The translations under genes and the position numbers were made by a program. Shown in pieces: positions 37,896 to 40,786 of a DNA stretch of 45,003 nucleotides. The notes under the pieces were generated by a model, which saw only the letters and a program-made list of their open reading frames with translations, did no database searches and was not told the DNA's origin. The DNA lies in the NCBI GenBank assembly GCA_964632185.1, contig CAZWBF010000002.1, positions 1 through 45,003 on the forward strand, given 5' to 3'. Position 1 is the stretch's first letter. Each line of letters begins with the position of its first letter. Origin of the DNA: an uncultured archaeon (GTDB taxonomy: Archaea > Aenigmatarchaeota > Aenigmatarchaeia > CG10238-14 > CAZWBF01).

Positions 37896-39158
37896 TTAAC
37901 CGTGGATTTTAATTACATCCAACAAAATCTTTTTAGGTTTATTTTCCAAAATTTCAGCTAGATTTGGTTTTGTTCTGCCATTATCTCCAGTTATTAGCTC
38001 TTTTATATAAAGTCCAGCCTGTGCTCTTATTTTCAACTCTAATTTTTTAGCTGATATTAACTTCCATCTAATACTCTTCACTAATCTTTTTCTAGTTTTT
38101 GCTGCTCTTCTATGCAAAACCCTAAGAGGTGTTTTTTGCTCTATAACAGTTTTTAATTTTTTAATTTCCTTCAGCTTCTTTTCATCAATTTTTTTAGAAA
38201 AAGTTACAACAACTAAATAAGTTTTATCATTTCTTTGACTTTTTATTTGCTTTACAAGAGAATGATCTACAAATTTAAAAGATGAAACCTTTATCTTTTT
38301 TGATTTATTTATTTCTCTTCTTATTTTTGCTAAATTAATTTTTCTTTTTAAAGGTTTAACTAACTCTATTACAAATGGTCTATAATCCAAGCAACGAGCA
38401 TCTATATCCTCCCTACCACTTGCATGAAACTTTGATTTTTTTGCTTTTGTTTCTTTCAACAAAGGTTTTTCAATTATTTCCTGCACAGAAGTTGGATAGA
38501 GCTTACCTTTACCTTTACATTTTAAACAACCTTTCCCTTTACAATATCGACAAATCCATTTTGATTGTGGAATATTTCTTACTAGCTTTTTATATTTTCC
38601 GAAAATGAACAAGCTTTTAATTTGAACTGAAATCCTATCATTTTCTAAATCAAGCAAAATCGTTATATCTGGATTTTGAGGGTCAAACTTTTTCTTCAAT
38701 TTTTTTTCAATAATTTTTCCAACTTCCCTATTAATTTCTTCTTTTATTCTTTCAACAAACTCTATCCCAATTTTTTCAAAAATTTCCTCTTCAGCTTTTA
38801 TCATCTCTTCCTTAGGTCTACAACCAACTAAAAAAGAATCAAACTCAAATTTTTCTATTCTAGAAATTATCTTTTTAGCATATTTTTCTAAATCTTTTTC
38901 GAAAAAGTTTTTGCAAACAAAACATTTCTTTTTGTTAGCACTAAATTTAAAATTTCGGAATTCAATTTCATAAAAATTGGAATAATCTACATCAAACTTT
39001 TCTCCGCTATCAATCAGAAAAGCTATCATATAACGAAAGATTTTCCCCCTTTCCTTATTGTTTAAACCATGTAAAAGCTGACCTCCAATAATTCTTCCTA
39101 AGCAATTATCACAAATTGGGTATTTAAGAATTTCCATTAAATTTTTTACCAATCTCAT
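37896..39158 (-). CDS. pus10: tRNA pseudouridine(54/55) synthase Pus10
   Basis: 420 aa with an N-terminal Zn site CDNCLGR...C, a second cluster CRYCKGKGCLKCKGKG, and the C-terminal catalytic region GREDIDARCL...RVLHRR...GLYIKELITGDNGRTKPNL. Confidence 0.85.
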   Translation of the reverse strand: MRLVKNLMEILKYPICDNCLGRIIGGQLLHGLNNKERGKIFRYMIAFLIDSGEKFDVDYSNFYEIEFRNFKFSANKKKCFVCKNFFEKDLEKYAKKIISRIEKFEFDSFLVGCRPKEEMIKAEEEIFEKIGIEFVERIKEEINREVGKIIEKKLKKKFDPQNPDITILLDLENDRISVQIKSLFIFGKYKKLVRNIPQSKWICRYCKGKGCLKCKGKGKLYPTSVQEIIEKPLLKETKAKKSKFHASGREDIDARCLDYRPFVIELVKPLKRKINLAKIRREINKSKKIKVSSFKFVDHSLVKQIKSQRNDKTYLVVVTFSKKIDEKKLKEIKKLKTVIEQKTPLRVLHRRAAKTRKRLVKSIRWKLISAKKLELKIRAQAGLYIKELITGDNGRTKPNLAEILENKPKKILLDVIKIHG

Positions 39159-39244
39159 AACTAATCCTAAATAAAAAATAAGAATTTCAAAATATATTTT
39201 AAATCTGAGAAAAAGTTTTTAATATTTAACTTTAAAAATAAAAA

Positions 39245-39468
39245 TAGCTATGGTAGCATCGAGCCGCCTATATTGTCTTGTTCTTGTAAAGAGCTACCTA
39301 GCTAAGCCTTTAACATTTATCAGATACTAATTTGGGATGATCCCGTTATAAAAGGTTTGTTTTGTGGGGGACCTGTGGTTTTTCTTTTTGCCAAGATAAA
39401 AGGGAATGAGTCAAGGTCTAACCCCACGGAGGTATTCCGATTTTAATAAGATTTGGACCCTCTGACTC
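39245..39468 (+). ncRNA. candidate structured non-coding RNA of unknown class (a divergent SRP RNA was considered but not confirmed)
   Basis: The only relatively GC-enriched, non-coding stretch in a 317-nt gap. Successive long helices can be drawn by hand (39245-57/39293-304; 39305-14/39345-57; 39364-74/39414-27 with upper stem 39380-88/39398-406). Three G.U pairs become C.A on the other strand, which favours a plus-strand transcript. Confidence 0.3.
39260..39272. repeat. GC-rich 13-mer CGAGCCGCCTATA, copy 2 (inside the loop of the first helix of the 39245-39468 element)
   Basis: Exact match to 20386-20398. Confidence 0.6.
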
Positions 39469-39475
39469 ACCTAGA

Positions 39476-40786
39476 TTAAAGCTTAAATCCAAATTGTTTA
39501 GCTAAATCCATAATTTTTCCTCTTTTCAAATTAGAAAGATTAAATCTTTTTAAAAGCTTTTTCATTTGATTATATTGAGTTAAAAGTTCTCTAACATCTT
39601 TTTCACTTCTTCCACTTCCCTTTGCAATTCTTCTTATTCTACTTGCATTTATTATTTCTGGATTTCTTCTCTCTTCCTTTGTCATGCTTTGAATTATCGA
39701 TTTAAAAACTTTTATTTTTCTTTCCTGTTCTTCTAAAACTTCTTTTGGAATTCTTGTCGATAATCCTGGAATTAAACTAACAATTTTGTCTAAAGAACCA
39801 ACTTTGCTTAAATTCTCAAACTGCTCAATAAAATCTTCTAAGGTAAATTCACCCTCAACTATTTTTTCAGCCTTTTCCTTAGTTATTCCAGCCTCTCTAA
39901 CTTTTTCCAGTAAAGTTTCTAAATCGCCTAGTCCAAGCAAGCGAGAAACAAATCTTTTAGGGTCATAAAATTCAAAATCTTCCAATTTTTCTCCAGTCCC
40001 AATAAATTTTACTTTTGAGCCAGTAGCATAACAAGCTGCTAAAGCAGCCCCTCCTTTAGCTGTTCCATCCATCCTTGTAATTATTACTCCAGTAATTCCA
40101 ACAAGCTTATTAAATTCTTTTGCTTGCTTCCCAGCAATCTTTCCTATATCAGCTGGTATAACTAACAAAACTTCATCTGGTTTTATAATTTTTCCAAGTT
40201 CTTTAAGCTCTTTACTTAACTCTTTGTCCAAAGCATCTCTTCCTGCTGTGTCAAAGATTAGAGAATCATATTTCTCTTCTTTCAAAACTTTTTCAGCTAA
40301 TTCAAACGGATTTTTATTTTCACTAACAAAAACTTTTGCTCCAATTTTTTGCCCTAGTTCAATTAATTGTTCTGGAGCCGCAGCTCTATGATAATCTAAG
40401 CAGACTAGAGCTGGTTTTAAACCTTGTTTTTGCAAGAATCTAGCTATTTTTGCACATGTCGTAGTTTTACCACTACCAAACAAACCAATCAACATTATTC
40501 TCTTCTTTCCAAGCAAAGAAGCTTTTTCTCTTCCTAAAAAATTCACAAGTTCTTCATAAATCGTTTTCAAAACAAACTCTCTAAGAGTTAAACCTTTTGG
40601 TACTTTTTCTTTCAAGCATTTTTTCCTTATATTTTCAATAAAGCTATTTGCCAATGGAATTTCAACATCGTTTTGAATTAAAATAAGTTTTAGCTCTTCT
40701 AGAATATCGTTTAAAAATTTTTCATCTATAACTGCTTTACCTGTAAGCTTTGCAATTAGGTTTGAAAGTCCTTTGAAGATGAGCAT
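39476..40786 (-). CDS. srp54: signal recognition particle protein SRP54
   Basis: 436 aa with an N domain, G domain GLFGSGKTTT, DTAGR, TRMDG and a C-terminal M domain. Confidence 0.95.
   Translation of the reverse strand: MLIFKGLSNLIAKLTGKAVIDEKFLNDILEELKLILIQNDVEIPLANSFIENIRKKCLKEKVPKGLTLREFVLKTIYEELVNFLGREKASLLGKKRIMLIGLFGSGKTTTCAKIARFLQKQGLKPALVCLDYHRAAAPEQLIELGQKIGAKVFVSENKNPFELAEKVLKEEKYDSLIFDTAGRDALDKELSKELKELGKIIKPDEVLLVIPADIGKIAGKQAKEFNKLVGITGVIITRMDGTAKGGAALAACYATGSKVKFIGTGEKLEDFEFYDPKRFVSRLLGLGDLETLLEKVREAGITKEKAEKIVEGEFTLEDFIEQFENLSKVGSLDKIVSLIPGLSTRIPKEVLEEQERKIKVFKSIIQSMTKEERRNPEIINASRIRRIAKGSGRSEKDVRELLTQYNQMKKLLKRFNLSNLKRGKIMDLAKQFGFKL

Follow-up and report, generated by a model that had tools for sequence, protein, structure and literature searches.

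The window, by which we mean the whole stretch of DNA analysed here (45,003 nt), comes from an Aenigmatarchaeota MAG of 674 kb in 69 contigs. Towards the end of the window two genes on the minus strand, pus10 and srp54, enclose a gap of 317 nt, which had been described before and is real, given that pus10 occupies 37896-39158 and srp54 39476-40786. The features of the gap and its borders are the following:

37896-39158, minus strand: pus10, confirmed by Pfam
39207-39229, plus strand: promoter, an A-rich BRE-like run (GAGAAAAAG) and then a TATA box (TTTTTAATATTTAA), recognised by shared layout and consensus
39243-39249, plus strand: predicted transcription start and very short 5′ leader, AAUAGCU here and GAUAGACU in most relatives, placed near these positions because of the location of the TATA box
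39245-39304, plus strand: helix P4, in which UAGCUAUGGUAGC (39245-39257) pairs with GCUACCUAGCUA (39293-39304), recognised by covariation
39250-39330, plus strand: small ORF of 26 codons in a conserved frame (MVASSRLYCLVLVKSYLAKPLTFIRY), with the stop codon TAA at 39328-39330
39331-39376, plus strand: kink-turn hairpin, from a 40-member alignment, with stem I (UUUGG 39331-39335 with CCUGU 39372-39376), the bulge G-A-U (39336-39338), the sheared pairs G39339·A39371 and A39340·G39370 followed by U39341·G39369, stem II (CCC 39342-39344 with GGG 39366-39368) and a loop (39345-39365)
39404-39472, plus strand: optional 3′ hairpin domain, from covariation of the closing pairs in 21 members, with an outer helix (UGAGUCA-AGGUC 39407-39418 with GGACC-(CUC)-UGACUCA 39455-39469) and, near the apex, CCCC (39422-39425) and the hairpin CGGA-GGUAU-UCCG (39427-39439)
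39476-40786, minus strand: srp54, confirmed by Pfam

The best reading of these features is a near-leaderless RNA, probably translated, whose stop codon abuts a probable L7Ae site. A separate observation concerns the neighbouring gene: in four genomes (G104:C44, G027:C2, G076:C6 and G037:C11) the Pus10 match breaks off near residue 246 and resumes within one open frame of about 930-947 residues; this has the appearance of an intein or of some other large insertion in frame.

In contigs whose Pus10 is 97% identical the gap is almost identical, and in a more distant locus, L013, where Pus10 is only 72% identical, a gap of 299 nt retains long identical blocks. RNAalifold, which the preliminary description had proposed for relatives, shows covariation in the 3′ domain on 21 members. 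In other relatives srp54 abuts pus10 or trmY (PF04013) fills the gap. A DNA similarity search in relatives returned AT-rich noise only; a sequence-only model, R1, has matches in 35 of the order's 118 genomes, almost always a single one in each, and under this model the copy in the window scores only 14.2 bits and is a divergent outlier. Many members lie at a distance from pus10 and srp54, one of them behind a tRNA gene, and the copies of family f5 stand beside a gene for an RPB9-type zinc ribbon. Since relatives carry the RNA by a tRNA gene, by the RPB9-type gene or elsewhere, its adjacency to srp54 and ftsY in the window is accidental.

The exact pattern of the kink-turn hairpin occurs in 78 of 371 genomes of the phylum and in 37 of 170 genera, and the reversed control gave one match. 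Because this pattern misses divergent copies such as that of the window, the true spread is wider than 78 of 371 genomes. The family is, from these searches, a normally single-copy one found in most Aenigmatarchaeota lineages. In the genome of the window (G000) the motif is present in one copy. A few genomes contain more than one match to the pattern, namely four in G009 and two each in G044, G049, G025, G097, G295 and G296; the additional matches may be paralogous RNA genes or reflect a redundant assembly. Outside the phylum, among 185,579 species genomes, only chance-like bacterial matches and a few differently labelled MAG contigs were found. Contigs with the Aenigmatarchaeota-type RNA are filed as Thorarchaeota, Micrarchaeota, Nanohaloarchaea, Thermoplasmata or 'bacterium' (L283, L284, L295, L264, L316 and L317), and at least two of the differently named contigs are the same sequences as genomes placed in the order of the window, which suggests mislabelled or mis-binned MAG records.

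Three further observations were made on the surroundings of the RNA. First, trmY (PF04013, pseudouridine-54 N1-methyltransferase family) lies between srp54 and pus10 in many Aenigmatarchaeota, among them L017, L019, L026, L031, L034, L037 and L042; in G000, G060 and G089 the RNA with the small ORF and K-turn occupies the gap instead of trmY, and no TrmY was detectable genome-wide in these three. Second, in f5 (L208, L211-L214, L218, L220 and L228) an RPB9-type zinc-ribbon protein of 58-69 residues is encoded 41-95 nt downstream on the same strand, by a gene (PF02150, 28-33 bits) that has its own SD and TATA box and always follows the RNA gene. Third, L217, L223, L229 and L137 contain a conserved basic ORF of 21-24 residues (MGNKTWVRLVLTKYRSRKDRK and variants) about 125-145 nt downstream of the K-turn; this ORF, found in genus g12 and one metagenome contig, is preceded by GGUGA, stands behind the 3′ domain and has no Pfam match.

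The invariant block GGGAUGAUUCC and the downstream GGAUGACC form a kink-turn of the box C/D type. After the stop codon the family motif reads 5′-UUUGG/GAU/GAU-UCC, then a pyrimidine-rich loop of 5-35 nt, then GGA-UGA/CC(UAA)-3′. The elements follow in the order of stem I (GG/CC with extensions), the 3-nt bulge G-A-U, the sheared G·A and A·G, U·N and stem II (UCC/GGA), so that all parts by which a kink-turn is recognised (a stem, a 3-nt bulge, tandem sheared G·A/A·G and a second stem) are present. The GAU bulge, the G·A/A·G pairs and the four flanking G-C pairs are invariant in 40 of 40 aligned members. Pair 4b-4n covaries, being U-A in 38 members and C-G in two, one of which is the window, and the third pair of stem I alternates between U-A, G-C and G·U. 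In the stem extensions 38 cells are changed on both sides, compared with 25.0 expected, a value reached by none of 500 shuffles; the covariation score of 0.162, compared with 0.115, was reached by 2 of 500 shuffles, and slid partners gave 0.04-0.09. In the window, box C is GGGAUGAUCCC (39334-39344) and the box-D strand is GGGGGACC (39366-39373); box D reads GGA in place of the usual UGA, U39341 faces G39369, stem II is CCC/GGG, and the G·A pairs are intact. One of the helices drawn previously, helix (b), which treated box C as a GGGA/UCCC mini-hairpin, is not supported by relatives: it is not kept in L013, and it cuts through the kink-turn of all relatives.

A gene of the Ribosomal_L7Ae family is encoded in G000 (C8:7063-7341, 109 bits), and the kink-turn is a probable L7Ae site. 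A second match to this family lies in the window itself (C2:13137-13409, minus strand, 69.5 bits) and contains one in-frame TAA, which may mark the boundary of a gene, a site of recoding or a fault in the assembly.

The 3′ domain is often present, and is absent in f5 and in G057. Its closing helix had been listed before as an alternative long-range pairing (39407-39418 with 39455-39469), and it proves to be a conserved part of the fold: RNAalifold with 21 members predicts 10 pairs, 9 of them with compensatory changes, such as UUGAG/CUCAA versus UUAGG/CCUAA and UUGGG/CCCAA. The small hairpin (d) at 39427-39439 is also retained, as GGA-loop-UCC or, in some genera, as AGA/UCU. The long hairpin (c), which pairs the box-D strand with the 3′ domain, did not hold as a family feature. 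It reaches 9 bp in L149 and G063, and similar complementarity is significant against shuffles (p ≤ 0.05) in only 3 of 40 members; the pairing of the ORF segment with box C is significant in 2 of 42. Riboswitch-like alternative pairings were consequently rejected, as they are not significant against shuffles. A Shine-Dalgarno reading of GGAGG in the 3′ domain was also rejected, since no start codon lies at a constant distance and GGA is the stem of hairpin (d). Genomic base-pairing targets for the conserved single strands were sought in this MAG, which is without 16S rRNA, and none were found.

Helix P4 corresponds to helix (a) of the preliminary description (39245-39257 with 39293-39304), which is present; in relatives, compensatory changes preserve it. 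GGUAGC/GCUACC in the window corresponds to GAUAGC/GCUAUC in L013, and in other genera GACUAUGC/GCAUAGUC or GUAUGCCA/UGGCAUAC pair at the same place. The helix encloses the start codon and the first 18 codons of the small frame, and the 5′ end, including the AUG, pairs with codons 15-18. In a single-sequence test against shuffles P4 is significant in only 14 of 42 members, and it therefore rests on covariation and not on the stability of single sequences. The region as a whole does not fold better than dinucleotide shuffles (z = -1.11 for the plus strand, -0.63 for the minus strand). Since the fold is no better than chance, the density of helices drawn by hand is no evidence alone, whereas their conservation is.

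The promoter is shared in layout by every member. The BRE-TATA arrangement is located 19-25 nt before the outer end of helix P4, including about 30 members in unrelated contexts, and the TATA box varies as TTTTATAT, TTTATTA or ATTTAAATA. Across 42 members the consensus is AAAattttTTtataTtta at -42 to -25 from the AUG, and the fraction of A/T is at least 0.9 at -36 to -29; for members that match well, the median distance from the TATA centre to the AUG is 32.5 nt. In the family the promoter stands about 25 nt before the RNA start, and the AUG about 8 nt after the predicted RNA start. A conserved AAAATATATTTTGAA about 30-40 nt before the pus10 start codon (window 39186-39200, minus strand; also L013, G089 and G060) is most likely the TATA box of pus10, and the promoters of the RNA gene and of pus10 would for this reason stand back-to-back, about 20 nt apart.

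The small frame is conserved in its openness. It reaches 22 or more open codons in 32 of 33 members, compared with 6 and 8 of 33 for the other two frames, and its median open length is 34 codons, compared with 10 and 8; the length ranges from 22 to 45 codons across members. The frame ends with TAA, TGA or TAG exactly 3 nt before the invariant GGGAUGAUUCC, and the spacing to GGGAUGA is kept in all members but one. The same result was obtained with 27 of 28 evaluable new loci, a set that reaches to family f8 in another order of the class, and among 185,579 species genomes 58 of 68 pattern matches have both frame and stop. Of the ten that fail, seven are bacterial chance matches without the frame, which serve as an internal control for the frame test, and one more is bacterial, with TGA and a frame that at 11 codons is below the length counted; the remaining two are archaeal (L300 and L315) and do have the stop, with frames of 73 and 83 codons that exceed the upper limit of 60 codons set for the test. 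In L013 the ORF differs from that of the window by an in-frame deletion of 3 nt, with the stop codon at the identical place. A second ORF starting from the AUG inside box C was discarded, because its frame and length are not conserved. The region had been called non-coding, a label that is doubtful because the ORF at 39250-39330 belongs to a frame conserved across the family.

In the encoded peptides no comparable conservation is seen. Length and sequence vary freely between genera, and close pairs show 3 synonymous versus 16 non-synonymous codon changes, where 22% synonymous changes are expected by chance. The conservation of openness and not of the product is the signature of a frame that would matter because it is translated. 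An open frame with a non-conserved peptide is unusual, and its purpose is what we infer here.

A first alternative is that of a pure non-coding RNA, namely a structural or scaffold small RNA bound by L7Ae, for example in ribosome or RNP biogenesis, on which ribosomes would never use the AUG or the frame, the latter being a by-product of RNA constraints. In agreement with this, conservation tracks the RNA helices and not the amino acids, the changes in the peptide look neutral, the AUG is buried in helix P4, and the combination of a kink-turn with covarying domains is typical of RNP RNAs. Even the semi-conserved V-Y that recurs in the peptides derives from the RNA, being the translation of the P4 strand GUCUAU. 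On the other hand, a by-product does not account for one single frame that stays open over 22-45 codons in 32 of 33 members and again in 27 of 28 further loci, for length changes that preserve the frame, or for an end that is fixed in place although any of the three stop codons can supply it. We consider this alternative unlikely, although it deserves to be taken seriously.

A second alternative treats the locus as an ordinary gene for a very small protein, in which a peptide of 22-45 residues is functional and the kink-turn, together with the 3′ domain, serves as a 3′ UTR for mRNA stability or tuning by L7Ae. Such a gene would have a promoter, a start codon (here a near-leaderless AUG) and a frame maintained up to a stop codon, as the locus does, and L7Ae is known to regulate mRNAs through kink-turns (PMC5539422). 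In addition, third codon positions are the most changed (15 of 29 changes), and some clades share C-terminal motifs such as FPI..K..TW. However, a functional peptide is difficult to reconcile with a length and a sequence that are free to vary between genera, with the 16 non-synonymous versus 3 synonymous changes in close pairs, and with the position of the invariant parts, which are all found outside the ORF; moreover, neither a hydrophobic run of transmembrane length nor a recognisable motif was found in the peptides. The lack of sequence conservation makes the peptide an improbable effector, and we regard a protein gene as unlikely.

A third alternative places the element on the minus strand and assigns it to a neighbouring gene, as a leader of pus10 or as the terminator or 3′ UTR of srp54. 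In eight members the element is directly upstream of pus10 in one orientation, and in the window a T-run follows helix P4 on the minus strand. Against this stand the many members that are nowhere near pus10 or srp54, the conserved TATA box that pus10 has of its own between the element and its start codon, and the invariant blocks, which read U·C instead of G·A on the minus strand, as the G·A pairs of the kink-turn exist on the plus strand only; no conserved frame or promoter was found on the minus strand. The wobble pairs also favour the plus strand. In a test of helix P4 that treats G·U and A·C alike, the plus strand has 17 G·U versus 7 A·C, and twelve members favour plus and three minus, while a comparison of MFE was uninformative about the strand. 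Apparent G·U pairs that had spoken for a minus-strand RNA came from a mis-registered helix, which RNAalifold re-registered, and the constant orientation relative to pus10 is outweighed by the evidence from promoter, ORF and G·A pairs. Four independent observations (promoter, reading frame, kink-turn and wobble pairs) thus place the element, as judged from sequence comparison, on the plus strand, and a minus-strand element is very improbable. The plus strand had been chosen earlier on account of three G·U pairs; the choice was correct, on stronger grounds. Helices kept in relatives, together with the promoter, the reading frame and the G·A pairs, bear out the earlier view of 39245-39470 as a structured stretch with the plus strand as the likely transcript.

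The suggestion of a very divergent SRP RNA, in favour of which the adjacency of the gap to srp54 and ftsY and its several hairpins can be cited, is refuted to near certainty, because the canonical, full-length SRP RNA sits on another contig (G000:C10:13262-13535, Archaea_SRP RF01857, 166.9 bits over model positions 1-317, with a gathering score of 96.5), no SRP match exists in the gap at E ≤ 10, and members of the family occur away from srp54. More generally, the Rfam scan for which the preliminary description had called finds no family matching the gap. The presence of SRP RNA elsewhere in the genome is an outcome that had been named there as a refutation. At the gathering threshold the whole window contains only 5S rRNA and six tRNAs; a permissive scan of 39100-39520 gave no match better than E = 1.9, and no Rfam family was found in the gap or in six relatives even at E ≤ 10. 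The RNase P RNA of the genome (RF00373) is located at C4:29345-29590 with 111.1 bits, and its model (P4, CR-I to CR-V) has no match in the gap.

Other candidates were rejected individually. The gap is no decayed trmY, as tblastn of TrmY against it finds nothing. An H/ACA guide sRNA beside pus10 would require an ACA box and a pseudouridylation pocket, and both are missing; in the sequences of the family stem I is followed by an A-rich run or CCUAA, with no ANA box at a fixed distance and no shared lower stem. A type I toxin mRNA was rejected because the peptides are without a hydrophobic run of about 18 residues, the locus is single-copy and there is no conserved antisense promoter.

We conclude that the gap most likely contains a stand-alone plus-strand gene for an RNA of about 230 nt, extending from about 39245 to at least 39470, which belongs to an undescribed Aenigmatarchaeota family and is most likely a translation-coupled L7Ae RNP; we assign a probability of roughly 0.55 to this reading. 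Points against it are the outlying character of the window copy, a fold of the whole region at chance level, the lack of significance of the alternative pairings that a true switch would need, and the unusual combination of an open frame with an unconserved peptide. The reading agrees with one of the two options offered in the preliminary description, an unclassified structured RNA of the plus strand, which can now be regarded as a member of a phylum-wide family with promoter, small ORF and kink-turn.

In the mechanism that we propose, ribosomes would enter at the 5′ end, which is nearly leaderless, melt helix P4 and finish with the A site on UAA 39328-39330, and the kink-turn would be bound by L7Ae, which is encoded in the genome. 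A terminating ribosome would cover about 12-15 nt past the stop, so that its mRNA channel would lie over the box C strand and, for this reason, the ribosome and L7Ae would exclude each other at the junction. The RNA would most likely work as a regulator or sensor of this kind: the act of translating the frame, and not the peptide, would control the assembly, stability or activity of the kink-turn and 3′ domain, or the reverse. Among the neighbours compared, no common downstream target of the family was found; the downstream neighbours are the convergent srp54 in the window, the gene for an RPB9-type zinc ribbon in f5 and, in g12, a basic ORF of 22 residues. A more specific version of the proposal is tentative, and we would call it possible and not probable: in a ribosome-engaging regulatory RNP, the ribosome on the mini-frame would meet the L7Ae-bound kink-turn, termination or stalling would report the level of free L7Ae versus translating ribosomes, and this would set the fate of the RNA and its 3′ domain, as a housekeeping feedback of archaea with reduced genomes.

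Genomes of Aenigmatarchaeota measure 0.5-1 Mb, yet most lineages keep one copy of the RNA, which argues for an important function. If the ribosome and L7Ae compete at the junction, the family would show in nature the kind of L7Ae/K-turn translational control that synthetic biologists have built, and it would represent a new way to couple translation with RNP assembly. The results also provide an annotation for a recurrent 'empty' spacer in Aenigmatarchaeota MAGs and remove a false SRP RNA candidate.

The arrangement of a frame that ends at a kink-turn is described neither in Rfam 15 nor in the literature searched. Several known systems can be compared with it. Archaeal SRP RNA (RF01857) resembles the RNA of the gap in its similar size and its place next to srp54/ftsY, whereas the latter has no features of helix 8 or helix 5 and no match to the model. 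The resemblance to box C/D sRNAs (box C RUGAUGA, box D CUGA) lies in the core, since the family blocks AUGAU and UGA form the same G·A, A·G and U·U core between two stems. Here, however, the core AUGAU...UGA is internal to a longer RNA, and pairs of stem II take the place of box C positions 6-7 and of box D position 1. In place of the two guide spacers of about 12 nt, the boxes are joined by a short stem and a variable pyrimidine-rich loop of 5-35 nt; a second GA motif (C′/D′) is missing, and the RNA, which includes an ORF, has two to five times the length.

With the bacterial leader-peptide switches (the trp/his attenuators and ermC) and with dual-function small RNAs, the family shares a short frame of which the translation rather than the product would matter and which is set within RNA structures that compete. 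It differs from these switches in having no common regulated downstream gene and no statistical support for alternative pairings; a leader-peptide attenuator was rejected because the downstream neighbours differ and those pairings are not significant. The partner of the frame would here be a protein-bound kink-turn and not a terminator or an SD-masking hairpin.

The closest comparison is with the autoregulatory K-turn in the 5′ UTR of archaeal l7ae, which is bound by L7Ae (Daume et al. 2017, PMC5539422; Huang et al. 2019, PMC6298567). There, the K-turn adjoins the Shine-Dalgarno sequence of a normal protein gene, whose initiation it blocks. In both cases the K-turn is of the simple standard type, comprising a GAU bulge of 3 nt, two G·A pairs and a short Watson-Crick stem, and in both it is located on a translated RNA on which bound L7Ae would clash with the ribosome, as is predicted for the present family. 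Two differences set the family apart: first, its K-turn follows the stop codon, at a distance of 3 nt, of a frame that is tiny and near-leaderless and has an unconserved peptide; second, its K-turn is joined to further covarying RNA domains.
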